64,000 nucleotides of DNA. It comes from Candidatus Poribacteria bacterium (GTDB taxonomy: Bacteria > Poribacteria > WGA-4E > WGA-3G). How positions within the stretch are numbered: position 1 is the stretch's first letter; the number at the start of each line of letters is the position of its first letter. Shown piece after piece: positions 1 to 58,000 of this stretch. The notes under the pieces are model-generated. The model did no database searches, had not been told where the DNA came from, and saw only the letters and a list, made by a program, of their open reading frames with translations. Made by a program: the position numbers and the translations under genes. The stretch lies in contig CAXXLX010000001.1 of the NCBI GenBank assembly GCA_963665235.2, forward strand, positions 1,312,001-1,376,000, in the 5' to 3' direction.

Positions 1-119
1 CTCAAACGTTCTGAATTCAATTATACACGTTTTTCGCTATTGGTGCAACTTTTTTTGTGGGTGACATAGGATTATTTAGTTCTCGATATTTTTGACCGTT
101 TTCTCAACACCCCTCTTAT

Positions 120-228
120 GTAGGAGCGTGCTGTGCACGCGATATTGCGCCTCCATATTTTCAATGGTCCTCTTATAGTATTCGGTGCGAAGCACCGCTC
201 CTCAAGAGCGTGCCGTGCACGCGATATT
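120..228. repeat. GTAG-type REP-like palindromic element with an internal 23-bp direct repeat
   Basis: gtaggagcg at 120 pairs with cgctcct near 197-203. gagcgtgc(t/c)gtgcacgcgatatt occurs twice (about 124 and 206). Confidence 0.55.
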
Positions 229-326
229 AAGGAATTGGCTGCTTGCCCGAATACTAGAGGAATATATACATATATAAAGTAAATTTATAAAACTAGACGG
301 GTGTGTAAAGTTTTTGTACAAAACCG

Positions 327-706
327 GTGCATAAGTTACACTTTTGACACAAAGTGTAACTTATGGTTTTGTGTATTGCATGTGTGTGAACGCACGCCTA
401 GTCTATGTTTGTAAGCGGTTTTGCCCTCTCTTTTTCGCGACACAAAAAAAACGCGTTGTGTCATTTCGACCGCCGATTTCGGGTATCAGTTCTGCGGAGT
501 TTTCTTACCGTTTTGCCTCCTACTTTTTTGTGCGGTTTGTGTGCATAAGTTACACTTTTGACACAAAGTGTAACTTATGGTTTTGTGTATTGCATGTGTG
601 TGAACGCACGCCCAGTCTATGTTTGTAAGCGGTTTTGCCCTCTCTTTTTCGCGACACAAAAAAAACGCGTTGTGTCATTTCGACCGCCGATTTCGGGTAT
701 CAGTTC
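327..706. repeat. About 165-bp direct repeat, two copies with a 214-bp period
   Basis: Copies start at 327 and 541 and are near-identical. Each starts with the hairpin cataagttacacttt-tgacac-aaagtgtaacttatg. A partial third copy lies near 760. Confidence 0.9.
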
Positions 707-917
707 ATCAGACTTTTCGGTCTGTTCTGCCTCCTATTTTTTGTGCTATTTGTGGGCAAATGTTACACTTTTGACACACGCTATCGATGTCTGGTCAGGT
801 GAGTTGCAAACCGTGCCGCTTTCCTCCGAAAAATGTTTTGGTTCTCTGTTATGTTATACCATTTTTATTAATTATTCTATCATTACCGGTTGTTAGAAAT
901 CAAACGGAGAACGGAAG

Positions 918-1041
918 ACACAAACTGGAAGTTTATGCTACAATAAAGAGCACAAACTGGAAGTTTATGCTACAATAAAGAGCACAAACTGGAAGTTTAT
1001 GCTACTACAAAAATGCACAAACTGGAAGTTTATGCTACAAG
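918..1041 (-). repeat. Four tandem GTAG-REP-like units (gtagcataaacttccagtttgtg on the minus strand)
   Basis: caaactggaagtttatgctac occurs four times with short A-rich spacers. The same family recurs at about 48207 and 48311. Confidence 0.85.
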
Positions 1042-1151
1042 AAAGAGACATTTTCAATTAGAAATGGTATTAGTTGCGAACTGTTTGATTTTTCTTCATA
1101 AAAAATATCGCAGACGTACAAAAACTTTACACACCCTTTCAAATTCTTTTT

Positions 1152-1181
1152 TTGCAACTTTTTGAGATTTTGGTGTATAAT
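1152..1181 (+). promoter_or_regulatory. Sigma70-type promoter of the 1242-5561 operon
   Basis: TTGCAA at 1152 and TATAAT at about 1176. Confidence 0.55.
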
Positions 1182-1241
1182 GTTAAAAAATGTTTTGTTT
1201 AGGTGTCGACTAGCTGACGAAATAGCGGAGTTTATTGAACG

Positions 1242-1670
1242 ATGTTACAGAAACACAAACACATCCTCATCTTACTTACGGCATTGGTGTACGTTTATTC
1301 CGTATGCCCGTTTCTCTGTGCGACTTTTGAAGAGAAGGTGTGCCATAACACCTCTCAAGAAATGTTGACAGGGGATGCTGGCTGTTGCCAGAAGGCGACC
1401 ACAGATGCCACGGGTGAGTCTGATACGGCATCAGAAAATGGAAAATTGTGTTGCACTCCCGTGCTAGAACTTATCCTGCTGGATGATACGCCTAATAGGG
1501 TTAATGTTCGTGAATTGAGTGGGCAGTATTTCGTTTTTACTGTTCCGCTTGTTGCAATTCCGTCGATTTCGCAGGCGAGGTTGCCGCGCTTTTTGTCCCT
1601 ACCCGCATTATACACATCTACCCCGAATTGCACGATATCCCGCCGGGGCCCTCCATATACGCACGTATAG
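1242..1670 (+). CDS. Cys-rich exported leader protein with C-terminal RGPP motif (DUF2946/CutF/CruR-like)
   Basis: Hydrophobic N-terminus, CxxxC, two CC pairs, ends ISRRGPPYTHV. It is the first gene of a metal-related operon. Confidence 0.6.
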   Translation: MLQKHKHILILLTALVYVYSVCPFLCATFEEKVCHNTSQEMLTGDAGCCQKATTDATGESDTASENGKLCCTPVLELILLDDTPNRVNVRELSGQYFVFTVPLVAIPSISQARLPRFLSLPALYTSTPNCTISRRGPPYTHV

Positions 1671-1776
1671 GCAGCTCTCTGCCATCAATTTCTCTTTCCG
1701 CTCCCATGTTTGCACGGGGGAATTCGCGGAAAGTCGTCTACTTTTAATTCAAACCTAATCATTTTTTTATGGAGGT

Positions 1777-1890
1777 CAGGACTTACGCATCGCGTTGATA
1801 AACCCTTATGATAGTGGGATTTAGAGGGAGACCTAGCGGGCGGGGGGACCCCGCCCCTACAAGGTTCCTGCTAAATTTGCGTAAGTCCTA
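1777..1890. mobile_element. MITE with AGGACTTACGCA terminal inverted repeats, flanked by GGAGGT direct repeats
   Basis: aggacttacgca (1778-1789) and tgcgtaagtcct (1878-1889). GGAGGT at 1771-1776 and 1891-1896. An internal REP hairpin gggcggggggaccccgcccctac is present. Confidence 0.8.
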
Positions 1891-1902
1891 GGAGGTATAA
1901 CA

Positions 1903-2943
1903 ATGCAACCCCAGAATTTCACGTTTTTGAAGTTTTTATCGCGATATTTTACAGTAGCACTCGCTATTAGCTTGCTGCTTTTTATTGAAATAGGTGCAGC
2001 TCAGGAGCAGGGTGCCCACGCCGGCCACAAAGCAGCGAACGGCTCATCTCTCAACGTTGCCCTTCACACCGAACCGAACACTGTTCAGGTTGGAACTCCG
2101 ACATCTCTGACGTTTCACCTTACCGATGCAAAAGGTGAACCGTTCACGGACCTTTTGGTACATCACGAGCGCGTTCTGCATGTGCTTATTGTTAGCGAGA
2201 ATTTGCAAATCATCGGCCATGTTCATCCCGAAGATTTTGAATCGCGGGATATGCTGGCAGAGTTAGCGGGGCACTATACGGTGCACTTTACGTTTCCGAC
2301 TGCAGGCCGCTATATTGTGGCAATAGATGTGATGACAGCGGAGGCAGAATTTTCCAAATATCTGTATGTAGATGTGAAAGGCACGCCGAAAATGACCGAG
2401 ATGCTCCGCGATTTTCGCCGAGCAAAAGCCATTCGCGGCTATACCGATGAAGGTGGTGACCGATATACTAAAGCGGTATCCGTAACGGAAACAGAGAGCA
2501 CGGCCGAAGCGGTGTATCATGTGAAAATGGAAACCCCTAAACAGATTCGGGCAGGTGAGATGGTGACGATTGGCTACCATTTCTCGCGCAATGGAAAACC
2601 GCTTACCGACCTCGTTCCGTTTTTGGATGCCCCGATGCATTTCGCAATTGTGAGCACCCGTTTAGATGGTGTGATACATACACACGGCAACGTGCCATCT
2701 AATAAACATGACGCGCATGGGACGAAGAAACAGGCGCAGCATGCGGGACATACAGGGCACGAGGTGCACAAAACACCGAAAGGGAAACATGAGCATCAGA
2801 GTGCTACGCCAGAGAAATTTGGTCCCACGGTGAATCTTATGACGATGTTTCCAAAGGCTGGCGTTTATCAAATTTTCGGGCAACTCAAACACACCAATCA
2901 GATTCTGTGGCTCAGTTTCATGGTTGAAGTTGTTAGCAAGTAG
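1903..2943 (+). CDS. Exported His-rich heavy-metal-binding protein with two Ig/YtkA-like domains
   Basis: Signal peptide; motifs HHERVLHVL, GHVHP, APMHFA, IHTHG; His-rich loop; repeated FPxAGxY. Confidence 0.7.
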   Translation: MQPQNFTFLKFLSRYFTVALAISLLLFIEIGAAQEQGAHAGHKAANGSSLNVALHTEPNTVQVGTPTSLTFHLTDAKGEPFTDLLVHHERVLHVLIVSENLQIIGHVHPEDFESRDMLAELAGHYTVHFTFPTAGRYIVAIDVMTAEAEFSKYLYVDVKGTPKMTEMLRDFRRAKAIRGYTDEGGDRYTKAVSVTETESTAEAVYHVKMETPKQIRAGEMVTIGYHFSRNGKPLTDLVPFLDAPMHFAIVSTRLDGVIHTHGNVPSNKHDAHGTKKQAQHAGHTGHEVHKTPKGKHEHQSATPEKFGPTVNLMTMFPKAGVYQIFGQLKHTNQILWLSFMVEVVSK

Positions 2944-2978
2944 GCGTAATCCTGGATTGCGTCTTAAGGAGGTTACAG

Positions 2979-3956
2979 ATGTTTTCTCAAATTTACCGTC
3001 CACTCTGGATATTTATCCTTTTGGCAGGTGTTTTGCTAATGGTAAGTATGCCGATGCAAGGCGATGCCCATGAGAAGGAGTGGCCAGGGCAGAAACTTAA
3101 GGCTTTTTTTCCGATGGCAAAGAAATTTGTTCAGCGAAGTGTCGTGCTTACGTCGGCTAAAATTGCTGCTATTGAGAAGGAGCTCGGCAGTAAACTCCGG
3201 AAGGAGGACCATAAACCGGTGTTTTATATTTCGCTCAATGCGAAGAATAGGCCAATAGGCTTGGTGCTGTTTGCTGATACACAGGGGCCGCGCGGCACAA
3301 TTGATGGCGCAGTCGGCTTGGACATGAAGGGGAAGATTGTGAAAGTGGCGGTCTATGAACACAAGGAGTCGGATGCAATTGCATCAGAGAAATTTTTGAA
3401 GCAGTTCATCGGCATGGATATAGACAGCACTTTCAAGGTGGGCAAGGATGTTAAAGCGGTTAAGGGGCAAGAGGCAGCATCAGAAGCGGTTGCACTGCTT
3501 CCGAAAAAGACGTTAATTATGAGCTATGCCCTCTTCCTCAAACGGAAACCGAAACCGAAGGCGGAAAAGCAACCGCAGACCGATGCCCAAAAGGATGAGA
3601 TGCCTGAAGTGGAAGACCTGAAGGAGCTTATGATGTTGATGGTGGATGCATATCTCAACATCGTTGACTACTTTGAGACTGGCAAGGACAAAGCGAAAGC
3701 GGTCGCTGCGGCGAAACAGCTCGTCACGTACGCGAAAGGCATCGGAGCGTTTGAACCCCCGAAAAATGCTGAACAGGCTAAGGAATATGCCGCGCTTCAC
3801 AAAAAGTTCGGCAAAACTCTCACGGAATTCGCTAAAAAGCTTGAGCAGGACGGTATTTCTGATGAGACGCGCAAACAGTGGAAGGCTATCGTCGCGTTAG
3901 TGAATCAGGCACACCGCCAGTTTAGCGAAGAAGAGGTTGACCTTGAGGCATATTAA
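2979..3956 (+). CDS. Exported FMN-bind-like domain fused to a cytochrome b562-like four-helix bundle
   Basis: Signal peptide. GxIxKVxVxEHKE..FLKQFxG is an FMN_bind/RnfG-like pattern. The C-domain DLKELM...PPK...NQAHRQF resembles b562. Confidence 0.65.
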   Translation: MFSQIYRPLWIFILLAGVLLMVSMPMQGDAHEKEWPGQKLKAFFPMAKKFVQRSVVLTSAKIAAIEKELGSKLRKEDHKPVFYISLNAKNRPIGLVLFADTQGPRGTIDGAVGLDMKGKIVKVAVYEHKESDAIASEKFLKQFIGMDIDSTFKVGKDVKAVKGQEAASEAVALLPKKTLIMSYALFLKRKPKPKAEKQPQTDAQKDEMPEVEDLKELMMLMVDAYLNIVDYFETGKDKAKAVAAAKQLVTYAKGIGAFEPPKNAEQAKEYAALHKKFGKTLTEFAKKLEQDGISDETRKQWKAIVALVNQAHRQFSEEEVDLEAY

Positions 3957-3969
3957 CCGTTGGAAACGC

Positions 3970-4000
3970 GTAGGGCGGGTTTTGACATCCGCCCTGCACG
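3970..4000. repeat. GTAG-REP-like intergenic hairpin
   Basis: gtagggcgg-gttttgacat-ccgccctgc. Confidence 0.6.
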
Positions 4001-4025
4001 CTTTTACTCAAAAAAGGAGTTTATC

Positions 4026-5561
4026 ATGCGCAAAATTTTGCTTTTTTACTTAGTCGCGTTCTTTTTAGCAGTCATGACAGAATATTCACCGAGTTTTGCT
4101 TTGCCCGCGTTCTATAAAATGTTTCGCACCAAATACAAGTGGGCAAGTGGATGCAATGTCTGCCACTCTTCAAAGACAGGTGGGGATTCTCCTAATTTAT
4201 ACGGCAGGGCATTCTTACACAACGGTATGAATTTCACAACGTTCACAAAGATTGAAAAGACAGATTCGGATAAAGATGGATTTAGCAATATTGCGGAGAT
4301 TCTCGCGCGTTCCTATCCGGGGGATGCTGCGAGTACACCGGAGAACGTCAAACCTACAGCCGATGCCGCCGGTGCGGACAATGGGTTGACTTCCGATTCG
4401 GAGGACATCTTCAGTTTCGATGACGTAGATGGAACAGAGGGGACAGAGGGTTCTGGATTTCTTGGAGATGCGTTCGGTAACCTTGTTTTTGGTGGGGCAT
4501 TGGATATCCGCCGCATTACGCGTGGACAGGATTTGATGCCTGATAGAGAAGACAATTGGGATACAGGGACCACGCTTATCCACGTCGCTGAATTTGTAGT
4601 GACAACGAGTGTCGGTGACCATATCAGTCTGTTGGGAGAACAGCTGCTGACAACCTCGCCCTTGGGGACGCAGGTTGCTGATGACCATGGGTTTGTATAT
4701 GCAATTTTGAGTAGCTTGCCAGTTTTACCAGCGGGTGCGTCTCTGAAAATTGGGCGATTTCGCCACGGTTTTGGTATTGACACAAAGTCGGATGCAGCCA
4801 CAAATCCGCTGTATAATTTGGTCCGGAAAAACATCGGTTTCATTTCCGACCGTGGCTTTCAACTCAACGGTTACGTTGGGCCCGTCTCCTACACCGTATC
4901 GCTTGCGGATGGGCCGGACTCACTTCGCACGGTTACGTCGGGAACTGTAGCATCCGGTATTCGCATCGGTCCGCACGGTAGTGGGGGTGGTGTTTTGAAA
5001 CCGCTCAGAAATAACAGTCCGCCTCTATTTCTCCATGTTAACGGTGACCTTCCGCTTTTGGGGAAGCGGATTTGGCTCGGTGTATCCTATTTTGATGGTA
5101 ACAGCTATCCGTTTAATCCACTGACAGGGGATGTTAATCCGTCGACGTTGGTTTACAAACGACGTGTCGGTTTGTCGACACATTTCAGGTTATGGCGGTT
5201 CGCGTTTGCTGGCGAGTGGGTTCGTGGAAGAGATACGCATCTTTTGAAATATCTACAAATTCCGCTCACAACAGAGGAACGTGGCGCGTCTGTGGAGGGT
5301 TATTACATGCATGCAGAAATACCGCTGTCGGAGTCCTTGGATTTTCGGTTAAAATATGATGTGTGGAATCCAAATACGGACCTGTATAAACGTTATGCTT
5401 TTCGCCGGGAATCTGAAGATGCGGTTTGGTCGACGCTCGGTGGTGCATTGACGTGGCATTTCACAGAGGGGGGGTTGGCTCGGCTTGCTTACCAGATAAA
5501 TAACGTTGAAAAACCGACGCGCAGTGGAGGCATAGTTCCGCAGCTTTTGGTAGAATTTTGA
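4026..5561 (+). CDS. Monoheme cytochrome c fused to an outer-membrane beta-barrel (Cyc2-like architecture)
   Basis: AAGGAG RBS before ATG 4026. Signal peptide ends SFA, followed by LPAF..CNVCH..NLYGRAF. DSDKDGFSNxxE motif, amphipathic beta strands, terminal Phe. Confidence 0.75.
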   Translation: MRKILLFYLVAFFLAVMTEYSPSFALPAFYKMFRTKYKWASGCNVCHSSKTGGDSPNLYGRAFLHNGMNFTTFTKIEKTDSDKDGFSNIAEILARSYPGDAASTPENVKPTADAAGADNGLTSDSEDIFSFDDVDGTEGTEGSGFLGDAFGNLVFGGALDIRRITRGQDLMPDREDNWDTGTTLIHVAEFVVTTSVGDHISLLGEQLLTTSPLGTQVADDHGFVYAILSSLPVLPAGASLKIGRFRHGFGIDTKSDAATNPLYNLVRKNIGFISDRGFQLNGYVGPVSYTVSLADGPDSLRTVTSGTVASGIRIGPHGSGGGVLKPLRNNSPPLFLHVNGDLPLLGKRIWLGVSYFDGNSYPFNPLTGDVNPSTLVYKRRVGLSTHFRLWRFAFAGEWVRGRDTHLLKYLQIPLTTEERGASVEGYYMHAEIPLSESLDFRLKYDVWNPNTDLYKRYAFRRESEDAVWSTLGGALTWHFTEGGLARLAYQINNVEKPTRSGGIVPQLLVEF

Positions 5562-5586
5562 AATAGCTACGGGAAACTATAGGAAT

Positions 5587-5649
5587 CATCGGCAAGAAGG
5601 GTTCTGGTGATTATGAAACAACTTTATCATCAGAAATCTCTTGCCGATG
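5587..5649. terminator. Long hairpin between convergent genes (gcaaga...tcttgc family)
   Basis: Outer arms catcggcaaga / tcttgccgatg; inner arms ttctggtgat / atcatcagaa. Confidence 0.6.
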
Positions 5650-5660
5650 GCTGACAACTC

Positions 5661-6665
5661 TTACTGCTGGGCTTGCTCCGCCTCAGTCTTGGCATGGATA
5701 GCGATAAGCACAAAACAGGTGGATTGCAAGTTGGCAGTAGGCTTTTCGAGTTCTATCGGGGTATTGCTGACGAAACTGCCATCTTTTCTCCGGGCTTTTG
5801 TGAGGTAATCGATAGCGACACGACGCGTATTGAGCGTGAGCAGGTCACTTCGAGCAGCAAGTGCCATAATAACACTGGCAGTCACTTCAGGGTCACTTGG
5901 TAAACCTTTGTATACAGGGAATCCACCGTCGGCATTCCGGTGCTGTTTTAACCAAAAAATATCTCTATCAATATCGTAAAATATTGATAATCCTTGAAGT
6001 ACCCAGGCGGTCACAAAAATATTGGAGGGTCCGCCGCGGCGGAGTGACCACCCCGTATCATTTTCGTCATTATCATTGCGGGTGCGGCGTGCTGGTTGGC
6101 CTAACCACTGCGCCCCCCTGGAAGCAGGTTCGAATCTCTGATTGAACCCGAGTTTTTTAAAGCCGGCTAAAACAGCGGCGGTATAGAGGATATTTCCGGG
6201 GCTGCCGCTCTGCTTTCCCCAGCTGCCGTTTGCATTTTGTGCATCCTTCATCCACTGAAGTCCCTTGAGTCGTATTTTGGGGTCGGTTTCGGCAGCTGCT
6301 AGGGCGATAAGGGAGAAGATGGTGTGGGCGGTGTTGTTGTTCCAGCTGCCATCTTGAGTCTGCGTCGACTTCAAATAGGTGACTCCGGCTCGGATAATAC
6401 GGGACCCGGTGCCCCATCCTGCGTCAATTAATGCCCAAATAGCAAATGCGGTGACTTCGGCATCACTTTTCCCTCCGGGTACAAGGGGCCATCCGCCATC
6501 TCGGTTTTGGTGTTTGATAATGTAGGTTTTCGCGCCTTCTATCGTTTGGTAGAGTGCCGGGAGCTCTGATGCATCATCGGCAAAACTTCGGGGCACGTTG
6601 AGACAGAGAAGGGACAACAGCATCTGGCAACATAATAGTATAGATATAGGTTTGTAATATCTCAT
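5661..6665 (-). CDS. Exported prenyltransferase/squalene-cyclase (QW) repeat protein
   Basis: Signal peptide MRYYK..SFA; repeats QNRDGGW, QTQDGSW, QNANGSW, RNADGGF. No DxDD motif. Confidence 0.75.
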   Translation of the reverse strand: MRYYKPISILLCCQMLLSLLCLNVPRSFADDASELPALYQTIEGAKTYIIKHQNRDGGWPLVPGGKSDAEVTAFAIWALIDAGWGTGSRIIRAGVTYLKSTQTQDGSWNNNTAHTIFSLIALAAAETDPKIRLKGLQWMKDAQNANGSWGKQSGSPGNILYTAAVLAGFKKLGFNQRFEPASRGAQWLGQPARRTRNDNDENDTGWSLRRGGPSNIFVTAWVLQGLSIFYDIDRDIFWLKQHRNADGGFPVYKGLPSDPEVTASVIMALAARSDLLTLNTRRVAIDYLTKARRKDGSFVSNTPIELEKPTANLQSTCFVLIAIHAKTEAEQAQQ

Positions 6666-6772
6666 TTTTTCACCTGCTAACGGTTGATAATCTAATTTTT
6701 GTCGGTTTTCTTGCCGAATGCGTGAACGGAAACCTTCGGCGTGTGTTTTCAACCCGACGGACAAAATAGAAA

Positions 6773-7897
6773 CTACAACTGTGGTTCAATCACGACTTTG
6801 TAAACGCCTTCCTCGCCGAGCATATCAATACCGGTTTCCAATTGATTTAAGGGTAGGTGGTGCGTTATCAATTCATGCAGCGGGGCCCGTGTCCGCTGGA
6901 GAAAATCCAACGCTGTCTGAAATTGGATTTGCGGATATGCCCACACCCCACAGACATCCAGGTCTTTATTACAAATTTGATGCGGTCTCACCCGGGTTTC
7001 GCCAGAATCGGTGTAGTGTCCAACCTCAATAACCTTGCCTCCGCGGCGGACTACGTCTAACGCTTCGGAGAAGACAATGGGTAAGCCAGCACATTCAAGT
7101 GCGATGTCCACGCCGACACCATCTGTGAGCTCCTGAATCTGTTCGAGCCGCTTTTCCGATGTTGTCTGACCAACATTGATAACTACATCTGCTCCCATCC
7201 GTTTCGCCATGTCTAAACGGCTATCGACGAGGTCGGTGGCGATGATGGTACCCGCGCCGCTATCCCTTAAGACAGCGATGACGAGTAGGCCTATCGGGCC
7301 ACATCCGAGCACGGCAACGCGGCTTCCGATACTGTAGCCGTCACCGACCTGCGGAAGTCCAGGGGCACAAGCGCGTTCAACAGCACGTGTCGCTACCGCT
7401 ACCGGCTCCGTCAACACAGCAATCTCTTCGGGAATGCTCTCCGGTATTTTGTAGACCCAGGAGTTTCCGTGGATATAGGTATACTCGGCGAATTCACCGG
7501 TGAGATAGGGTGGCGTTTCGCTGTTGCTGAACCCGTAAATGGTGCGTCCCGAACACAACGTTGGACGGCCCGGTACATGTAAGCAGTAATAGCATCTGCC
7601 GCAGTTTTTTGAACCCGGCACTACCGTCACACGGTCCCCGGTTTTGATGGGCCCGCCCATCACATTCATAACCTGATTCGCACGGGTGCCGAGCTCCGCG
7701 ACTGTTCCGACAACTTCATGTCCAGGGATGACAGGAAATTTTAGTGCGGTGTGCCCGAGATACATGTGCTTATCGCTTCCACAGATGCCGACTTTGTCAA
7801 CTTGGAGTAGAAGGGAATCTTCTGTGGGTCTCGGTTTCTCAAATTCGCGGAGCTGTATCCGGCCCGGTTGGAGCATGACTGCTGCTTGAACTTGCAT
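6773..7897 (-). CDS. Zinc-dependent alcohol dehydrogenase (MDR family)
   Basis: ICGSD, GHE, CGRCYYC..C, GCGPIG. Confidence 0.9.
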   Translation of the reverse strand: MQVQAAVMLQPGRIQLREFEKPRPTEDSLLLQVDKVGICGSDKHMYLGHTALKFPVIPGHEVVGTVAELGTRANQVMNVMGGPIKTGDRVTVVPGSKNCGRCYYCLHVPGRPTLCSGRTIYGFSNSETPPYLTGEFAEYTYIHGNSWVYKIPESIPEEIAVLTEPVAVATRAVERACAPGLPQVGDGYSIGSRVAVLGCGPIGLLVIAVLRDSGAGTIIATDLVDSRLDMAKRMGADVVINVGQTTSEKRLEQIQELTDGVGVDIALECAGLPIVFSEALDVVRRGGKVIEVGHYTDSGETRVRPHQICNKDLDVCGVWAYPQIQFQTALDFLQRTRAPLHELITHHLPLNQLETGIDMLGEEGVYKVVIEPQL

Positions 7898-9434: not shown

Positions 9435-10346
9435 TTAAAACTGGACTGAGCAGGCGTTTTCCTGTTCTTCTAAGTAAAGGATGAAGGCATCCAGTTCTTT
9501 GGAGAAAGTGCTAAACAACTCGCCGATTCGCTTTGCATTTTTCTCCGTTCTTTGGTAAACCAATTCCTGTCCGTATATATTATTGAAAACGTGGCGGAAC
9601 TCCAGCAATTCCTGCAAATATGCGAAAGTCTCTTGAGAAATTACAGGGTGTCGTTCAGGCCGCGCTTCGGACATCTGCGTTACTAGTTCTTTATGCCATC
9701 TACTTCCATCGGGCATCCGTAAATCAACATCGAGAGCGATTCGTTTAAAAATGTTCTCCACCCCCCTATAGTAGTCCACAAGATTTTTGGCGATGGTCGT
9801 TTCTATCTCTTCTCTATATTCAATCGGGGCAGTTTCAATTTTTTCTAATCTCTCTTGTATTTTTTTTAACGTTGCTTCTATCTTGTCGCGCTCGTCAAAA
9901 ATTCGCTGGATAAGTTCGCTTCTGTCCACTTCGTAGATTACCCCTTTTTCGATGGGAATTAGTTGGCTCTGGATTCTCTCGCGAAACAGCCCTTTGCAAT
10001 CTTTAAAATCGACTAAATCAATCTTAAACAGTCCGCTGATGTCGGATGCTACTGATGATGCCCGGAAATACTTGTCGTTGGGGATGCCCCAGACAGCGAT
10101 GTCAATATCGGACCATTTTGAGAACGATTCCCGTTCGGCAAGTGAGCCGAAGACAGCGACCTGGGTCGCGCCGAAGTCGCTGTAGAGGATGGTTGCAATT
10201 CGATGTGCGGTCTGCCATGCGCGTTGCAGCAAGGCTTCATCGACCTTCCTGTTCTGAAAGTGCTCATCGAGTCGCTGGCGATATTCCGCTAATTCTTCTG
10301 GCGATAAATCTTTGGCTGTGCGATGGGTGTCCGTAGATTGATGCAT
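9435..10346 (-). CDS. Fused minimal nucleotidyltransferase-HEPN (MntA-HepT-like) protein, copy 1
   Basis: FGSLA..SDIDIAV; C-domain ENIFKRIA..WHKEL..FRHVFNNIY. Confidence 0.85.
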   Translation of the reverse strand: MHQSTDTHRTAKDLSPEELAEYRQRLDEHFQNRKVDEALLQRAWQTAHRIATILYSDFGATQVAVFGSLAERESFSKWSDIDIAVWGIPNDKYFRASSVASDISGLFKIDLVDFKDCKGLFRERIQSQLIPIEKGVIYEVDRSELIQRIFDERDKIEATLKKIQERLEKIETAPIEYREEIETTIAKNLVDYYRGVENIFKRIALDVDLRMPDGSRWHKELVTQMSEARPERHPVISQETFAYLQELLEFRHVFNNIYGQELVYQRTEKNAKRIGELFSTFSKELDAFILYLEEQENACSVQF

Positions 10347-10362
10347 AGGATTGTCTCATGAA

Positions 10363-11304
10363 TTACTCGTCAGGATTTTTTAGCCACACTATGAACACGT
10401 CGAGTTCGGCAGATAAACTGTCAAACATATTGCAGACCTCTTGTGCGTTTTCAACTATTTTTTCAAGTTCCAATTCAAATACGTATATGTTTCTAAAACG
10501 GTGGCGGAATTTTAAAGGACGCGTTAAAGCGGCGGCTGTTTTTTCGGAAATCACAGATGGACGCACTGGGCGCGACATTGACATCTGCTCTAATAAATCT
10601 GTGTGCCAATTTTTTCCCTGAGATTCGTCCTGGTCAATTTCTTGAGCAATCCGTTTGAAAATGTTCTCTAATCCGGTATAGAAAACAGAGAGGCGTATAG
10701 CAATCAATTCTTTAAGCTCTTCCCGAGCTTCAGCGGATGCCGTTTTCATTCTTTCGAGGCGCGTTTTGATTTCTTCAACAGTTCTCGCTATTTTTTTTCG
10801 TTCATCAGCGATTCGATTGATGAGTTCTTGCTTGTTCATTTTGTCAGTTTCAGCGCGGATTTTTTGACATTCAGAGATTAATCCACTGTAGCCTGTTTCT
10901 CCCTGTTGAATTCGGATAGCTTGACTTTGAATCCGTTCGCGAAATCGGCCTTTCGCGCTGTGAAAGTTGATGAGCTCTATTTTGAACTCTGGACTGAAAT
11001 TTCTGGTTTCCCATAACGCGTCAAGATATGTGTCATCAGAAAGTCCCCAGACAGCAATATCAATATCTGACTCTTTTGAAAACCACCTCTGTCCGGCAAG
11101 CGAGCCGAAGACAGCGACCTGTGTCGCGCTAAAGTCGCTATAGAGCATGGTTGCAATCCGATGTGCGGTCTGCCATGCGCGTTGCAGCAATGCTTCATCC
11201 ACTTTCCGGTTCTGAAAGTGTTGGTCAAGTCGCTGGCGATATTCTGCCAATTCTTCTGGCGATAAATCTTTCGCTGTGCGATGGGTGTCCGTAGATTGAT
11301 GCAT
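10363..11304 (-). CDS. Fused MNT-HEPN protein, copy 2
   Basis: FGSLA..SDIDIAV; ENIFKRIA..WHTDLL..FRHRFRNIY. The N-terminus is nearly identical to copy 1. Confidence 0.85.
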   Translation of the reverse strand: MHQSTDTHRTAKDLSPEELAEYRQRLDQHFQNRKVDEALLQRAWQTAHRIATMLYSDFSATQVAVFGSLAGQRWFSKESDIDIAVWGLSDDTYLDALWETRNFSPEFKIELINFHSAKGRFRERIQSQAIRIQQGETGYSGLISECQKIRAETDKMNKQELINRIADERKKIARTVEEIKTRLERMKTASAEAREELKELIAIRLSVFYTGLENIFKRIAQEIDQDESQGKNWHTDLLEQMSMSRPVRPSVISEKTAAALTRPLKFRHRFRNIYVFELELEKIVENAQEVCNMFDSLSAELDVFIVWLKNPDE

Positions 11305-11335
11305 CAAAATCTCCATTTAACTGCCATCCAGACTA

Positions 11336-48668: not shown

Positions 48669-49012
48669 AAAAGATATGGGCAAATTTTACAAAATACATC
48701 GGATTGATGATATATAATCACCCCAATCTGTGATGCAATTGTCTAAACGGATTTTCATAGGTCAAATATAGAGCTTCGGTGCCCAATTTTTACCTGCTTT
48801 GACCTTAAGATTACGGAATAATTAACTACGGAGATGTTGACTCCATCCCAGGGTCGATTTTACGTATACGGAAAATTTAGCACTGGGTAGTAGGATGGTT
48901 AGATGGGCAAACACCTACCTCCGGTTGTTTTTGTTGTGTTTCCCGCTTGCCCATCTAAAAACTTCAGTATTTAGTCTTGTGTTTGCACAGACTTAACGAG
49001 GAGGATGAGTTA

Positions 49013-52000
49013 ATGAAAAAACGAACACTTGTTTGTTTTTTGATTTTTACATTGTGTATTTTTTACAGTTCGATTCCGAACACCGTGTTCGCGCAAGATG
49101 GTAAATCTCTCGCCCAACAGGTGTTTGACAAGCACAGCGAGACGCTTTTACGCGACGACGTTAAAGTCCTTTTGCCAGAGCTGTTCGACGGTCTTAAGGG
49201 TTCAAACGTAGATGATCTCCCGGGGCTCATAAGTCTGGCTATCATTTTACTGAACGCTAATCAAGACGCGGCCGTAAAAGCGCAGGCCGCCAATAACGGT
49301 GTCACGCTAACAGATGATCACATTAAGCTTCTTAAAGACTCAGCTGTCCAAGCTGTCCTCAATGATGAAGCTACGAAGAGTTTACTTGGACTTAAAGGGG
49401 ACGGACTTGGGACAGCAATTGACGAACTTTCTAGGTTGATTAATGAGGCTGGCACTGACCCAGGTGATGGAACCGACCCAGGTGATGGAACCGACCCAGG
49501 TGATGGAACCGACCCAGGCGATGGAACTGACCCAGGTGATGGAACTGACCCAGGTGATGGAACTGACCCAGGTGATGGAACTGACCCAGGTGATGGAACC
49601 GACCCAGGTGATGGAACCGACCCAGGTGATGGAACCGACCCAGGCGATGGAACTGACCCAGGCGATGGAACTGACCCAGGTGATGGAACTGACCCAGGCG
49701 ATGGAACTGACCCAGGCGATGGAACCGACCCAGGCACAGATCCAATTATCCCTATTGATTCAGACCTAAATGGCACTTCACGACTTGGTGGACTTTCCCT
49801 TAACAAGGTTCATTTTGAACAGTTTGTGCAAGATATCATTGCTGCAGTGGACCCTTCAGGGCCTTCGGGTGCTCTAAGTTCCCTTATAAAACCGGATGAG
49901 ATAGATAGTCTGATAGATGGTATTCTACGTCTACCTCAGATTAAAGGATTTCTTCCAGCGGATCAGATTTCCATGATTAGTTGGCTTTTAAAGAATGAAT
50001 TTTCTATTTTCCAGGATGAACCCGCAGGATTAGATTCTGAGAACTTTGGAAATGCTATTATGCCTAGCCTTTCTGAGCTCCTCTATTCTGATGTTCCTAC
50101 CAAAAGCAAGTACCTGACAAGCGATAATCTGAATCTCTATGTGCGTGTTCCATCAGCACTGAACGGTGGTAAAGTTGAATTTAGACTCAATGGTCAGCAA
50201 GTAGCAGAGGCTACAAGAATTACCCCGGTTGAATTCCAAAAGGATACTATTCCTTATACCTTCCGGTTGGAGGAGACTCTCGCTGCTACCAACCTGCCTG
50301 CATTACCAGCACATGGCAATCAGATTTTCTCGGGTGTTGTGCTTCGCTATTCACAAACCGGATCAGATGGAGATTATATCGCTGTTGATATGATGCCGAT
50401 GCATGAGGGTAAAGGGGTTGTATGGAAAACTGAGATAGGCATTTTACCAAAAGGTAGTACCTATTACTATTTTGAAGTCACCCTCGCCGAGCCGGTTTAC
50501 CTTGAGGTTGTCAATCGTGAAGCACTTGCTGAGGCTGTATCTTCAGCAAACGCTACGCACACCCAAGAGCTAACAAGAACATATAAGATTGAGAATTGGG
50601 CAATGCCCGATCCGCATAACCTCCAATTGGTTGATCGGGGTATTTTTAAGGCACTCTTCACCGTCGATATTTTAGGAATTTTAGCTCTGCCCGAAGTCGG
50701 TAACGCCATTCGGAGTGGAGATCTAAGCGGGATTCGCCAAGAAACTTGGAATAGACTTCAGGGTTTATTCCTGCGCAATGCCGAAAAATTGACCAGCGAG
50801 CTTGAAGGGATGCCTATGGAAGAGGATGGAAAGCAGGTATATACTGGTGGTCTGTTTGATCCGTTGCTGGCTTCTGTCTTCAGCGTGCCAAACGTTGATG
50901 TAGAAACGCAGTCCCTTTGGTATGCTGATATCGGTTCAATTGCGGACAATTCAAGGTCTAATCCAATCCACACGCTGGAAGCTGTTGTACGCGATGCAAA
51001 TGGGGATGCAGTTGATGTAATTGCTGCTGCCTTCAGTAAGGATACCACTGCACCGGAAGCTACAATTGAGATTGCGCCTAGCGAAAATACGGCTGGTTAT
51101 ACGAACAACGATCGCATTTATGTTGCTACAGTTCCCTCAAGAGATGCTGCCGCGCTGCTAAGCATTAGAAGTCAAGTGCAAGCTGATGAGGTGGGACTGG
51201 ATAAAGGTTCTCTCATTTATCAAATTGCGCGGACAGATGAGGCTGGAAATCCTGTAAGCACTTGGATGCCTTTGGATGTTCAGGGTACTATGTTAGCCTC
51301 TGAGCTTTGGGATGTCGCTAGAGAGCGATTGACCTTAATTCCAGATGAAATTAAAGACCCAGCTACAGGTGCCTCCATTAAACCCAAAGAATTGTCTTTA
51401 GATGCACTTTTGGCACTGCTAAGCTCCCCGCTTGTGCAGCCTACATTGATAGGAGCCCTCAAGAACCTTGGTCTAACGAATGCTGATGAACAGCACGCCG
51501 CAGTGTTAACAGGGCTGCTAGGTGCAATCGCCGGGGATATTAACCTTGTACCGCTAACCTGGGATGCATCTCAGGAGATGACGATGGCTATTCAAGGTGA
51601 GAACATGCCGCTCCTTACCGGGAACTATCGTATTCGTGCCCTCGGTATCGATTCGCTCCTCAATATCAGTTCTCATGACCAGGGACAGCATCTCAGAATC
51701 GTCGCGCCTGAAGAAAATTATGATCGGGCAAGCGTCATCCTCGCAAGTTTAGGCGATGTCAACGATAATGGCAAGGCTGATGATTACGAAACGGGGACTA
51801 TCTACAAAAATACCACCGACAATGTCATGTTAACTGTTAAGTTCAGCGAGCGTTCAGTGCATCCTGTTACTCTCCAAGTTCAATACATGGATGCAGATGG
51901 CATCACGTGGAATAACATCGGCGACCTGCTTTCCCTTGCCGAAGGGGTGGACGAAGTTGCCCCAATTTCTTGGAACGTCACCGATTTTGATGCATTAGTC

Positions 52001-55000
52001 GCAGCTGGCGATACTGTCAAGGTCCGTGCAGTCGCAGAAAACGCCCTTGGACTCCCAGATGACGACCCAATGGTGCTCTCCATTAATTTGGATGACGATG
52101 TGCATCCAGTCGATCCGGTGGTATTAGCTGTTGACGTTGATGCAACGTCCATTATGAAAACGAATCAGGATAGCGGTGCCCCGCAAGGGACAATCAACCT
52201 TATCGGGTATACACCACGTCGGACGGTCCCAGCAACTGACATAATTCGTGTTGAAGCCAAACGGATGACTGACGAAATGTGGATGGAAATCGGTATTGTT
52301 GAAGTCAGCGATGCTAACGGTATGGGAGGCGGAGATACCGCTGCTATTCCCTTTAAAGGTAAAACACTGGCAGATGCGCATTCCGGGCTCCATATAGATC
52401 CGACCAGTAGTTATCTCAAATGGGTGGTTACTGTAGATACGACCGCCTTAGCGGATACCATCACGAAGGATAGCCCCGGCGCACGCGATGTAGCACTTGA
52501 TGACAACCGCTACATGGTGCGGGCTTATGCTGTCGGTGAGGACGGTAGTGATGTTTCTCCTGTCCTTGAAGGTGATAACACTGAAATGTTCTCCGTTGAC
52601 AACGATGACGATGTCGCACCACTCGGGCCGACAAAAGTTGTAGTAGTTTCTACTAGGGTTGACGCAGTTAATCCCCACTTTGTAGACCATGGCGAAGGTA
52701 AGTACGAAGCAGGTGGCCTCGTTGACAAATATGACGATACCTCACCTGTTATTACCTTGATGCTTACGCCAACAGCCAAGCGGTCAACTTATGCAGGGGT
52801 GAAGTTGATAACGACTCTTCCTGAAGGTGCTGTGATAGTAGGACCGACTGAGACTGCGGAAGGCAGTGGTGTCTTTAAAGTAACAGTTGATATCGGCACA
52901 CTTATGGACGAAGACGATATGGTCCACAACGACGTATATCTGCCAAACGGTGATTATATGTTCCACGCCCTGGCTTATGACAAGGCGGAGCCATACAATG
53001 ACGAGACTGCTGCTGACGAAATGTTTCTCGAATACGGAAATATTCAAGCCGATACTTACGACGATGATGAAATCACGGTGACTGTCAAGAACACTTACCG
53101 TCCCGCTCCGGGCGTAGTAGCAATCACCGTCGACAATTCAGACGAGATGATGAATCCGGATAGCAGCGCGCCGCAAGGCGAACTCACGCTCAATGCATAT
53201 TCGCACGATATCACTTCACCGCCAACAGAAGAGGTTCGATTTGAAGTCAAACGTTCTGGCGATGAAGCTTGGACTGTCGTTGGCACTGCAAGTGAATCCA
53301 CACCTGTTACGAAAGCGGATGCGGATATAGCAGATGTTTTAAATGGGCTTGTCGGAATTACAGAAAACGGCACAATGTCGGGTGAGGAATCAGAAACCGA
53401 CATCCTTGAACCCTACCAGAAATGGTCTATTACCATTGATACTGTTGCTCTTGGATTAGAGGATACTATCGCACGTGGTGATGCCGCGCAACGCGATGTC
53501 AAGTTAGATGATAACCAGTATGAGGTCCGCGCGATTTCACTCACGCCGAAAAACCCCGAGATGCCCGAACATGAGCAGCTGGCCGGTGTGGCAGCATCCT
53601 TCTCATTAGATAATGTTGATGATGTTCCCCCACTCGGACCGACAAACATCACCGGTATTTCTGATATTGCAGGGGACATCGCTCAGAACGAAGATGGCAG
53701 CTACACTGTCAGTTTAATCGTTGATGAACCAGCCCTCGCAGCAACGACAGATGTCACATTTACCATTAAACCGACTGCTGATGAGAAAACTTATGTCGGC
53801 GGTAAGGTTATCTTGGTTCAAACTGCGCCTGATGGCACAGTCATGGAATTTGAAAATGCTGTTGAAGCTGGACAGGTTACGATTAACGTCAATCAGGATG
53901 CAAACGAAAACGGCATCTACACGTATTACGCGCTTGTTGAAGATAGTGAAAGCAATAGGCAAGCAAATACAGAAGAGGAAGGGATTTCTCCAGTCATCGA
54001 TGTCCATGTCAAAAACTTCCGTGCAAGTGACATTCAGGAACTTATGGTCACGGCAGTTGATGGCAAATCGGTGGATGAGAATGGTTTCCTTGAGGTGGAT
54101 GGCAAACTTCTGAAGGTAAACGGCGAAGATGCTGTCCGAATTCCGCTCCGAGACTCAATCGATGTGAGTTTCAATGTTGCTGATACCTCATGGCTAGCAG
54201 TTGGAGACCTCACAGGTGTCCTTGTCGCTCAAAACGAGGTAATGTTCACCGCAAGTAGCGATGCTGAGAATATGTTCGCACTGATGGCAGAAAAGCTTTC
54301 AGAGCTGGACGATGGCTGGTATACAGCAGAAGGCGAAATCACAAAACGGAACGGTTCTATAATCTTCCCGTTAGCGGACATTAATTTGGATAACACCGGC
54401 CCAATGATCGTTATTAAAACGCCAACAGTAGGGGCTACAGTCAATGACTTGCCAACACTGCTTGCTAGTTTAGACGATGGCGAATTGGGTAGTGGTGTCA
54501 GTGCACAAGATACAGCTGTTGTGACCCTCGTCCGGATTCGTCCGAAACATGAGGGGCAGGTAGAAGTTGATGTTGATGTCGACGATAGCCTTGTTGAGCA
54601 AAATCTCGACTCGCTCGTCTACACTGGCACTAATAACCTTTCCGGTGGCGCATATACGTTTAAAATCCAGGTTGCAGATAGTCTAGGAACCGTTGGTACA
54701 GAGTCGGTAACGTTTGCTATTGAAGGTTTAAACCCAACAGTTGTCATTACCGCACCTGCTTCCGGGCAAACTTTTGATGCGAGCCCAGAAAGCATTACAG
54801 GTTTCTTTGCTGGTGGCGGCGAGGTTAGCGTTACGAAGTTTTCCGTTAACGACGTGGATATGGATATAACGCCAGATGGAAACAACTTCACTTATATGCC
54901 AGCTGAAGGATTCAGTGAAGGCGACCACAAAGTCAATGTTGAAGTTACGGATGGCAGCGGCTTAACGGCTGAAACCTCCTTAACCTTCACAGTAGAATTA

Positions 55001-58000
55001 CCGATTCCGACAGTGTCTATAGCAGCACCTGCTCCTGGTAGCATTCATGACCATGAGTTCAGTCATATCGCTGGTGAATTCAGCGGTGTCGGTGATGTTG
55101 AAATCACACTGATGGTCGGTGATAAGGAAGTTGATGTAACCCAAAAGGGTAATCAGTTTACCGCTACATATCCAGAGAAGTTAGCTGAAGGCGACCATAA
55201 GGTATCTGTCATGATTACCGATGCGAATGAAAAAACCGCCAACGCATCAGCCGCATTCTCCGTAGTCTATCCTGTCCCAACGGTGTCTATAGCGTCACCC
55301 GCTGCAGGTAGTGCTCACGACCATGAGTTCAATCATATCGCTGGCGAGTTCAGCGGTGTCGGTGATGTTGAAATCACACTGATGGTCGGTGATACAGAGG
55401 TTGATGTAACGCAAAAGGGTAATCAGTTTACCGCTGCATACCCAGAGAAGTTAGCTGAAGGTGACCATATGGTATCTGTCATGATTACCGATGCGAATGA
55501 AAAAACCGCCAACGCATCAGCCGCATTCTCAATCGCCTATCCTGATGCGATGATATCTATAACCTCACCCGCTGCAAGCGGTGCTTATGACCACGAGTTC
55601 CGTTACATTGAGGGTGAATTTACTGGCGTTGGTCCAGTAGATATCAGCCTGATGGTTGGGGAGACCGAGGTTAAAGGTGTATCTATAGCAGGCATGCAGT
55701 TTAGTGCTACATTGCCAGATAAGCTGCCCGAAGGCGACCATAAGGTAACCGCCAAGATTAAGGATGCAAATGATGAAGAGGCCGCAGCATCGACCGAATT
55801 CAAAGTTACGTATCCTGATGCGATGGTGTCTATAGCGTCACCTGCTGCAGGTAGCACACACGACCATGAGTTCAGTCATATCGCTGGCGAGTTCAGCGGT
55901 GTCGGTGAAGTCGAAATCACACTGATGGTCGGTGATATGGAAGTTGATGTAACGCAAAAGGGTAATCAGTTTACCGCTGCATATCCAGAGAAGTTAGCTG
56001 AAGGTGACCATACGGTATCCGTTATGATTACCGATGCCAATGGGGAAACCGCTAACGCATCAGCCGCATTCTCAATCGCCTATCCTGATGCGATGATATC
56101 TATAACCTCACCCGCTGCAAGCGGTGCTTATGACCACGAGTTCCGTTACATTGAGGGTGAATTTACTGGCGTTGGTCCAGTAGATATCAGCCTGATGGTT
56201 GGGGAGACCGAGGTTAAAGGTGTATCTATAGCAGGCATGCAGTTTAGTGCTACATTGCCAGATAAGCTGCCCGAAGGCGACCATAAGGTAACCGCCAAGA
56301 TTAAGGATGCAAATGATGAAGAGGCCGCAGCATCGACCGAATTCAAAGTTACGTATCCTGATGCGATGGTGTCTATAGCGTCACCTGCTGCAGGTAGCAC
56401 ACATGACCATGAGTTCAGTCATATCGCTGGCGAGTTCAGCGGTGTCGGTGAAGTCGAAATCACACTGATGGTTGGTGATAAGGAAGTTGATGTAACGCAA
56501 AAGGGTAATCAGTTTACCGCTGCATACCCAGAGAAGTTAGCTGAAGGCGACCATACGGTATCCGTCATGATTACCGATGCCAATGAGAAAACCGCTAACG
56601 CATCAGCCGCATTCTCAATCGTCTATCCTATGCCGATGGTGTCTATAGCAGCACCCGCTGCAGGTAGCACACACGACCATGAGTTCAGCCATATCGCTGG
56701 TGAATTCAGCGGTGTCGGTGAAGTCGAAATCACACTGATGGTTGGTGATAAGGAAGTTGATGTAACGCAAAAGGGTAATCAGTTTACCGCTGCATACCCA
56801 GAGAAGTTAGCTGAAGGCGACCATACGGTATCTGTCATGATTACCGATGCCAATGAGAAAACCGCCAACGCATCAGCCGCATTCTCGATTGCATATCCAA
56901 TGCCGACAGTGATGATCCAATCACCTGCTGCTGGCCACATGTACGGTCATAGCGAATCGGTGGCAATCCTGGGTGAATTTACCGGTGTAGATAAAGTTGA
57001 TGTCGATGTCACACTTGATGGTAAAGCCGTTGAAGGCGTATCTGTAAAAGATAACCAGTTTACCGCTAACCTTAAAGCGGCAACATTAAGTGATGGTGAA
57101 CATAGGATTGATGTTACAGTCACGGATGCGAACAAGAAAACCGCGCAAACATCGACTATCTTCAAAGTCAATGTACCAGGGCCGACAGTTGAACTCCTCT
57201 CACCGGCCGCGGGTCAAACCTATGACCACGGTAAACCGGTTGTTCGGGGGACATACACAGGCGTTGGTGACATTACGCTAATGCTTGCTATTGACGACGG
57301 TGACCCGTTTGAGGTTGCAGGCGAAGATAACCAATTCACTTATATGCCTCCTGAAGAGCTAGGTGGCGGTGAACACACCGTTTCTGTTACAGCGGAAGAT
57401 GCCAATGGCAAAACGGCGCATGCAACCGTTGTCTTCTCAATAGAGCTAGATTCAACACCGCCTGTCATTTCAGAGGTATCGCCATCTGGTGTGGTGAGGC
57501 TCAATAAAGCGGATGTCCTCGCGGAGAACTTTGCCATAACGATTTCGGCAGTTGTCAGTGATGACGAGTCTGATATCTTAGACGTTAACTACGTAATTGA
57601 CGGTGGAGACACAAACACTTATCCTGTCAACCGCGTTAAGAATAGGTTCGAGATTGTAGAAAGCTTTACCGCCGGTCCACACACAGTTAAACTGTCAGTG
57701 ACCAGTAAAGGTGGCACTCGGGAATTCAGTTGGCAATTCGTATTAGAGGTTGATGATGTTGCCCCGGTAATTTCGTCAATCACGCCTACGGGTACCCTCC
57801 ATGCGGGACTTCCGACAATTTCGGCAAGTGCTGTGGATGCATCCGGTGTAACCGAAATGGTTATCACACTGATGGATAGCAGTGGCGAAGTGGTGGAAGG
57901 CGAGACCCAAGATGATGATGAAGATAGAATTAACCCAGGTATCACCCGTTTAGACTTCCATCCGGCTGAACCTCTCGCTGAGGGGACTTACGTGATTGAG

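Follow-up and report, generated by a model that had tools for sequence, protein, structure and literature searches.

A Poribacteria operon with a predicted heme-domain porin and a b562-like bundle linked to Rieske/cytochrome b genes: a possible copper-linked electron relay to the outer membrane

Organization and conservation of the locus

The 64,000-nucleotide stretch of contig CAXXLX010000001.1 of a Candidatus Poribacteria bacterium (assembly GCA_963665235.2, positions 1,312,001 to 1,376,000 of the forward strand; hereafter the window) contained an operon of four co-directional genes, A to D, which is described here. The operon encoded a Cys-rich leader (A), a His-rich protein (B), an RnfG-fold protein with a C-terminal four-helix bundle (C), and a porin carrying a predicted heme domain (D), and it was tentatively interpreted as a copper-linked electron relay. 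All four open reading frames (ORFs) were found where the original prediction had placed them, and each opened, as judged by eye, with a hydrophobic signal-like stretch (Table 1). The single promoter proposed upstream of A was also recognized by eye in 18 of 19 relatives, although the sigma70-type scan overall was at chance level (12 sites, compared with 9.9 +/- 3.1 expected). The hairpin proposed to close the operon was a real structure (-33.8 kcal/mol, z -5.65) but had no U-tract and was not conserved. The 100 nt located 3' of D varied among the 19 relatives, and a von Willebrand factor type A gene was positioned directly 3' of D in seven of them. No RNA family was detected by Rfam in positions 1-7000 of the window.

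Table 1. Position and nature of the features of the operon in the window.
Feature	Position	Strand	Description
Promoter	1152..1181	+	predicted sigma70-type, TTGCAA-18-TATAAT; from promoter scan, seen upstream of A by eye in relatives
Gene A	1242..1670	+	142 aa, 8 Cys, exported-type leader, two CC pairs, C-terminal RGPP
Dispersed repeat	1778..1889		REP (repetitive extragenic palindromic)-like, before the ribosome-binding site of B; passenger
Gene B	1903..2943	+	346 aa, 25 His, two-repeat YtkA-like exported protein
Gene C	2979..3956	+	325 aa; signal peptide, RnfG/NqrC fold, linker, b562/c'-like four-helix bundle
Gene D	4026..5561	+	511 aa; signal peptide, one CxxCH, acidic linker, predicted 16-strand OprP-like porin
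Hairpin	5586..5650	+	strong, in the gap separating D from the convergent gene; specific to the strain, may be a terminator

The genomes compared were composed of the family of the window (f1, 36 genomes), two sister families (f2 and f3, 9 and 8 genomes), and a further group, f4 (7 genomes); the genome containing the window is referred to as G000. Full-length D was present in 23 of the 36 f1 genomes, with a remnant in one more, and B was present in the same 23. Gene order was compared in 19 of these 23 relatives, and the order A-B-C-D was identical in all 19, which supports the co-occurrence of the genes across related genomes. Among 24 genomes of other families, D gave only weak heme-domain matches (two genomes), and B was found alone in one. 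Named homologues of D and B came from Candidatus Poribacteria, and the four genes stay together in many Poribacteria that live as symbionts of sponges. No description of the module was found in the open-access literature; the genes might be among those listed in the supplements of PMC12992588 and PMC8238504.

An extra His-rich barrel gene was located inside the operon in six of the 19 loci (L025:4412-5347; L022, L023, L024, L026, and L027). An in-frame TGA followed its signal peptide, as CxxU in five loci and UxxU in one, and this codon usage makes the product a likely selenoprotein. A plasmid search using this accessory barrel returned no match.

The b562-like bundle of gene C and its link to Rieske/cytochrome b

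The N-terminal domain of C matched Pfam FMN_bind (25.1 bits, cut-off 22) and was aligned with the RnfG/NqrC fold (8ahx_G, Z 15.3, root-mean-square deviation (rmsd) 2.4, 138 aligned residues). The top structural matches of the C-terminal bundle were cytochrome c' (6a3k, Z 13.3, rmsd 2.2, 108 aligned residues) and cytochrome b562 (3u8p, Z 12.1). The heme ligands of b562 are a Met and a His at the two ends of the bundle. In C, the sequences LMxxM and HxxF were kept in all 45 bundle copies, a count that leaves out a degenerate third copy of G000 in which the Met and His were lost. From the structural model and these residues, the bundle is predicted to be a heme carrier of the b type.

The degenerate copy formed the end of a 693-aa repetitive ORF rich in Asn, Asp, and Pro (G000:C1:3588191-3590272), and a near copy of the C-D spacer was located behind it. 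In a homologue of C at L180:5972-7393, a DUF7088 domain separated the RnfG fold from the bundle.

The proposed fusion of an FMN-bind-like domain with a four-helix domain was thus retained as a fold, but its flavin was not. The enzyme ApbE modifies the motif [S/T]GA[S/T] of FMN-binding proteins (PMC8238504). This motif was absent from all 28 sequences compared, and ApbE was found neither in G000 (92.6% complete) nor in the 53 f1-f3 relatives carrying the bundle of C. The same search detected ApbE in 4 of 7 f4 genomes and in 8 of 14 control genomes. Therefore, the role of C as a flavin shuttle was abandoned.

The C-type bundle was present in every f1, f2, and f3 genome (36/36, 9/9, and 8/8) and in none of the seven f4 genomes. 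Of the 17 f2 and f3 loci, 12 were fetched for gene order; C was followed by the Rieske and cytochrome b genes in nine and by the Rieske gene in the other three. In four more f2/f3 genomes, cytochrome b was located 524-549 bp past C by coordinates, giving a total of 13 of 17 genomes in which C preceded both genes, as seen directly or by coordinates. The f2 copies of C contained a lipobox-like Cys. In six genomes, namely G000 and five of the 36 f1 relatives, cytochrome b itself ended in a 69%-identical copy of the bundle, and in one genome (G008) this was the sole copy. A tree of the bundle copies did not resolve the order of events within f1.

In G000, the Rieske gene and the cytochrome b gene with its C-terminal b562-like bundle occupied C1:1518220-1520174, and no c-type cytochrome gene adjoined the pair. 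The four His residues and the PEWY motif of cytochrome b were kept. High-potential Rieske proteins carry Ser and Tyr at two positions that were occupied by Ala and Phe in its Rieske partner. Another cytochrome b cluster, of the multiheme type, was located near a heme-copper oxidase (~C1:2817800-2835500).

Because of the gene order and the cytochrome b fusion, the bundle of C is likely the periplasmic electron acceptor of the Rieske/cytochrome b complex and a stand-in for cytochrome c1. No b562-type third subunit of a Rieske/cytochrome b complex was found in the open-access literature.

The heme domain and barrel of gene D

In the predicted model of D (pLDDT, the predicted local distance difference test score, 82; pTM, the predicted template modeling score, 0.81), a disordered acidic linker connected a small, helical heme domain to 16 long strands. 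The heme domain, approximately residues 26-110, contained CNVCH at residues 43-47 and a DSDxDG motif. The barrel of this model was matched best by OprP (2o4v, Z 24.3, rmsd 4.8, 325 aligned residues). The fusion of one CxxCH with a beta-barrel was thereby confirmed at the level of prediction, and D appears to be a monoheme domain tethered to a porin, with heme binding predicted from the motif. G000 contained c-type maturation genes, Rho, and a heme-copper oxidase with CuA.

The family-wide invariant residues of the barrel included His, Glu, Asp, and several Arg residues, and conserved His/carboxylate residues were located on strands 2-4. No match was obtained with D in a PDB sequence search or with the heme domain in a plasmid search, and the ESM Atlas search gave unnamed clusters and a weak Porin_O_P lead only. 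Membership of D in the Cyc2 type had also been suggested. The defining motif of Cyc2 was not present in D or in any of 261 related sequences, and pattern searches for true Cyc2 found none in five genomes outside the Poribacteria, 121 Poribacteria genomes, and viral contigs.

In the heme-domain family, the mature protein typically started with x-Pro right past the signal site (79 sequences fitting a pattern that requires x-Pro). In cytochrome f, which also has an x-Pro mature start, the N-terminal amine is the sixth heme ligand; by analogy, the N-terminal amine of D might be guessed to play the same role. Three proteins (P0083, P0093, and P0104) contained 4-7 tandem copies of the heme and DSDxDG domain of D.

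Genes A and B

In each of the 20 copies of gene A (26-47% identity), the motif R[AG]PP was located exactly four residues ahead of the stop codon. Both CC pairs were also kept in all 20, and the distance from the second CC pair to the motif was 61-64 residues (63 in 15 copies). A was the only such ending among 5833 G000 ORFs of at least 100 aa. The predicted Cys-rich, arrest-type leader ending in RGPP was supported by the conserved position and spacing of its motif. Its suggested relation to DUF2946 was not, as PF11162 was not matched, nor was any Pfam (E up to 1) or NCBIfam family.

Similar leaders are described in the literature. CruR of Bordetella, the leader of copper operons, works with a Cys motif set a constant number of residues from RAPP (PMC9426467); arrest by CruR was demonstrated in vitro and was most stable with RGPP (PMC12992588). 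RAPP/RGPP leaders stand first in copper-homeostasis operons (PMC9426467, PMC12992588), and RGPP leaders in general also precede TonB receptors and PepSY proteins (PMC12992588). CutF of Rhodobacter shows copper-responsive stalling ahead of a multicopper oxidase (10.1101/2025.02.05.636593). From its sequence, A is likely a CruR/CutF-like arrest peptide and not a DUF2946 member.

An RNA-library contig of a related strain spanned A and the start of B, with most of C and D uncovered. This coverage gives no evidence of attenuation after A, because levels cannot be read from contigs. A conserved Rho-utilization site after A was not supported either, the excess of C over G in the 60 nt past the stop being modest and uneven. 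The A-B spacer contained a 112-nt dispersed repeat with 101 BLAST pieces genome-wide. This repeat was missing from the RNA contig of the related strain and was therefore regarded as outside the system.

Gene B encoded the expected His-rich exported protein and matched Pfam YtkA (29.7 bits, cut-off 25.9), with an internal repeat (E 9e-6). Fourteen of its His residues did not vary across the 20 copies. Its distant homologues on plasmids (20-26% identity) were annotated as hypothetical or as 'heavy metal-binding domain-containing protein'. Heavy-metal ATPases, cupredoxins, or efflux genes adjoined these homologues in two of the three regions opened, and none did in the third. B is likely a periplasmic metal carrier.

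The reshuffled module in other phyla

Records of Bdellovibrionota, Myxococcota, Nitrospirota, Marinamargulisbacteria, and Omnitrophota contained homologues of the barrel. The outside set analyzed was composed of 37 loci, namely 25 of 62 genome loci (the rest being from Poribacteria or Poribacteria-like) and 12 of 23 metagenome loci (those left out being short, Poribacteria-like, or, in one case, a duplicate). The heme domain was present in the barrel locus in 31 of the 37, fused to either partner; its fusion to an RnfG-fold protein was observed in 29 loci and the fusion to the barrel, as in Poribacteria, in two. A single RnfG-fold protein was encoded in 25 loci, and 22 of the 23 such proteins aligned were His-first. 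A second, unnamed His/Met barrel family with the N-terminal pattern HH..HPF..HM occurred in 13 loci (L042:6451-7317 and 12 others).

In addition, 31 of the 37 loci encoded a membrane protein in which His-x-His, Asp, and Trp-Trp were invariant. Searches of G000 and the f1-f3 relatives did not detect this His-pair membrane protein, whose place in Poribacteria is likely taken by the Rieske/cytochrome b complex. A strict either/or between the bundle of C and the membrane protein (matches in 7/7 f4 genomes and 0/53 others) was rejected, as the f4 matches were a CxxCH-bearing paralogue in unrelated contexts. A CxxCH-bearing membrane protein of ~245 aa, related to the His-pair membrane protein and without a Pfam family, was located at L181:1069-1794 and at seven other f4 loci.

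A copper-type gene, defined as a P1B ATPase, multicopper oxidase, CusA/CzcA-type pump, CsoR-like repressor, or DUF305 gene, was present in 23 of the 37 loci and in 18 of the 25 loci of at least 11 kb. As a rough background, G000 contained three copper-type regions in 5.3 Mb. These neighborhoods bear on two readings with another metal. Reductive uptake, chiefly of iron, would use the same relay with Fe(III) as the acceptor; the conserved His/Asp/Glu-type residues of the barrel and the occurrence of RGPP leaders before TonB receptors and PepSY proteins fit this reading. However, FTR1, FeoB, and TonB receptors were not among the recurrent annotated neighbors (39 representatives scanned, not every ORF), and iron uptake was judged improbable.

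Oxidation of Fe(II) or Mn(II) for energy in the manner of Cyc2 was considered the least probable of all readings. D shares the architecture of Cyc2, with a signal peptide, one CxxCH, a 16-strand OprP-like barrel, and a partial motif likeness. The His/carboxylate residues on strands 2-4 and the barrel homologues in two Manganitrophaceae genomes point in the same direction. On the other hand, the Cyc2 motif was missing throughout the related sequences, the heme-barrel fusion was rare in the outside loci, and the neighbors were metal-resistance genes. The hosts include Bdellovibrionota and Myxococcota, which are not known as iron oxidizers.

Copper and the direction of electron flow

Within Poribacteria, the occurrence of D was correlated with changes in C and in copper genes. 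Immediately behind its predicted signal site, C had a His residue in all 20 copies adjoining D, compared with 2 of 21 copies without D. In the nine loci fetched from f1 genomes lacking D, C was always preceded by a CusA-type gene and a small barrel gene, and the orthologue of this CusA was present in 12 of 13 f1 genomes without B/D but in only 1 of 23 with B/D. In three f3 loci (L173:6421-12171; also L171 and L174), an operon headed by an A-like RAPP leader contained genes for a DUF3347-like protein, an outer-membrane efflux protein, a multicopper oxidase, C, and Rieske, with cytochrome b encoded elsewhere.

These patterns could also be explained by copper or heavy-metal handling without an electron relay, an unlikely reading but the strongest of the rivals. 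D would be a gated metal porin with its heme domain serving as sensor or plug, B and the first His of C would carry the ion, and the bundle would be a respiratory subunit that came along. Neither the copper-type neighborhoods nor the leader needs electron flow. The heme domain was mobile, as most of its 875 library matches shared the heme domain alone and were mostly unrelated to barrels, and C persisted in 12 f1 genomes without D. The high frequency of both the heme domain and the His-pair membrane protein in the outside barrel loci argues against this reading, as does the retention of the bundle Met and His in every C copy beside D.

Inward flow is a further possibility, and quite an unlikely one, in which D would oxidize Cu(I) at the pore as an O2-independent stand-in for a multicopper oxidase and C would pass the electron to a terminal oxidase. 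Multicopper oxidases were present in 11 of the 37 outside loci and before C in the three f3 loci, the B/D module and the CusA pump replaced each other at one locus, and the heme-copper oxidase of G000 has CuA. CutF-type leaders switch on detoxification (10.1101/2025.02.05.636593). However, the bundle of C occupies the acceptor position of a quinol-oxidizing complex. Furthermore, electron transfer from Cu(I) to menaquinone through the direct membrane link of other phyla would be uphill by the known potentials.

Proposed relay and its significance

The reading preferred here, with a confidence somewhat short of even, is that the operon forms a copper-linked electron relay from the respiratory chain to the outer membrane, running in the reducing direction. 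Electrons would pass from quinol through the Rieske/cytochrome b complex to the predicted b-type heme of the C bundle, and C would transfer them to the predicted c-type heme tethered under the porin D. The heme of D would then likely reduce copper that D, B, and the N-terminal His of C capture at the pore. B and the first His of C would act as metal carriers, and leader A would tune expression to the metal by ribosome stalling. That C and D bind heme and touch each other, that the metal is copper, that electrons flow outward, and that ribosomes stall on A are inferences. The outward direction was preferred because the C bundle occupies the acceptor place of the Rieske/cytochrome b complex and because the outside module carries the His-pair membrane protein, a candidate quinol link. 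Reduction of Cu(II) is downhill from quinol.

Several observations weigh against this relay. In the family of the window, C no longer adjoins Rieske and cytochrome b, and the cytochrome b of G000 has its own bundle. Four-helix bundles reach Z values of ~13 generically, and non-heme bundles gave 11.4. The barrel of D had no invariant Met or Cys among 20 Poribacteria copies, and its family-wide conserved residues, which are His, Asp, Glu, and Arg, would fit Cu but equally Fe, Mn, Zn, or anions. No copper gene was located beside the operon of the window itself. The Poribacteria genomes are related to one another, and the His/D and Cus/D patterns therefore represent few independent events. Among the outside loci, 14 of 37 showed no copper-type gene in the available DNA, several were near-duplicates (L107/L110 and L108/L119), and members of the P1B, resistance-nodulation-division, and CsoR families also act on Zn, Co, and Ni. 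Cu(I) made in detoxification islands of 32-kb scale would be harmful unless coupled to export, and the direction may be the reverse.

The original prediction of a heme-to-periplasm relay coupled to metal was therefore retained in part. The porin with a heme domain and the bundle tied to Rieske/cytochrome b were kept; flavin and Cyc2 were removed, and the neighborhood pointed to copper instead of Fe(II) oxidation. A wider generalization, which is rather unlikely, would describe a multi-phylum envelope machine that couples the quinone pool to a porin binding metal and sets the redox state of copper at the outer membrane through flavin-free, His-first RnfG adaptors. In Poribacteria, it would be fed by a Rieske/cytochrome b complex with a non-covalent b562-type third subunit instead of cytochrome c1.

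Two questions are addressed by this system, the redox control of envelope copper in Gram-negative bacteria and the role of cytochrome-porins outside iron-living organisms. C, the heme domain of D, and leader A are small, expressible parts with which both can be tested. A Rieske/cytochrome b complex with a b562-type subunit, if true, would be a new respiratory-chain architecture. The locus also serves as a warning that a CxxCH-porin need not be an iron oxidase and that an FMN_bind match need not be a flavoprotein.

Repeats and flanking sequence

An 838-bp element at positions 299-1136 of the window had perfect terminal inverted repeats of 21 bp and also contained two direct repeats of 202 bp and four units of 32-33 bp. 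It gave more than 1100 BLAST pieces in the genome, with one 23-mer occurring 815 times, and was placed outside the system. The element resembles a miniature inverted-repeat transposable element or a composite repeat. A GTAG-tagged REP-like hairpin was located between C and D (3970-4000). Two tandem paralogous fusion genes (9435-10346 and 10363-11316) were also present beside the locus in relatives, and their products presumably resemble nucleotidyltransferase/HepT fusions. An ORF of 3257 aa was located on the + strand at 48977-58750.

Comparison with known systems

The bundle of C was similar to b562 and c' in its up-down four-helix topology, N-terminal Met, and C-terminal His. Unlike c', it has QAHRQF, with no Cys and no CXXCH, and its heme would be non-covalent; unlike both, it is fused to an RnfG fold. 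In Bacillus QcrC, a cytochrome c domain follows subunit IV. The C bundle has a similar position, behind the last helix of the Rieske/cytochrome b complex or in the next gene.

The N-terminal part of C resembled ApbE substrates and the porin-FMN_bind-ApbE clusters of Ralstonia plasmids, one of which sits in a copper-resistance island, in its fold, its FMN_bind match, and its porin neighbor. It differed from them in having no flavinylation motif and no ApbE, and in its conserved N-terminal His and fused b562-like bundle.

Like CruR and CutF, leader A is ~145 aa long, with an export signal (by eye) and with conserved Cys residues at a fixed distance from a C-terminal RAPP/RGPP. It also shares with them its place at the head of the operon, ahead of a long spacer. 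The genes downstream are not a TonB receptor, PepSY, or CutO, unlike those of CruR and CutF. In contrast to DUF2946, A has two CC pairs and a CxxxC but no CXXC, and a spacing of 61-64 instead of 45.

The architecture and motifs of Cyc2 are described in 10.1101/228056 (Keffer et al.), PMC13692758, and PMC13741234. D shares with Cyc2 a signal peptide, a single N-terminal CXXCH, a length above 365 aa, and a predicted 16-strand OprO/OprP-like barrel, and AXPXF and [Q/K][T/Y]-x5-CXXCH are each present. However, D reads ALPAF-YKMF-RTKY, where four extra residues break AXPXFAR[Q/K][T/Y] and no AR is present. PNL is located 8 residues past CXXCH, compared with PXL at 4, and the family consensus is GG..xN.YG. 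The heme domain of D runs into the DSDxDG motif and a long acidic linker; it also differs from that of Cyc2 in being fused more often to an RnfG-fold protein than to a barrel and in its copper-type neighborhoods. The module may best be classed as a variant of the porin-cytochrome conduits, placed under an arrest-peptide leader.

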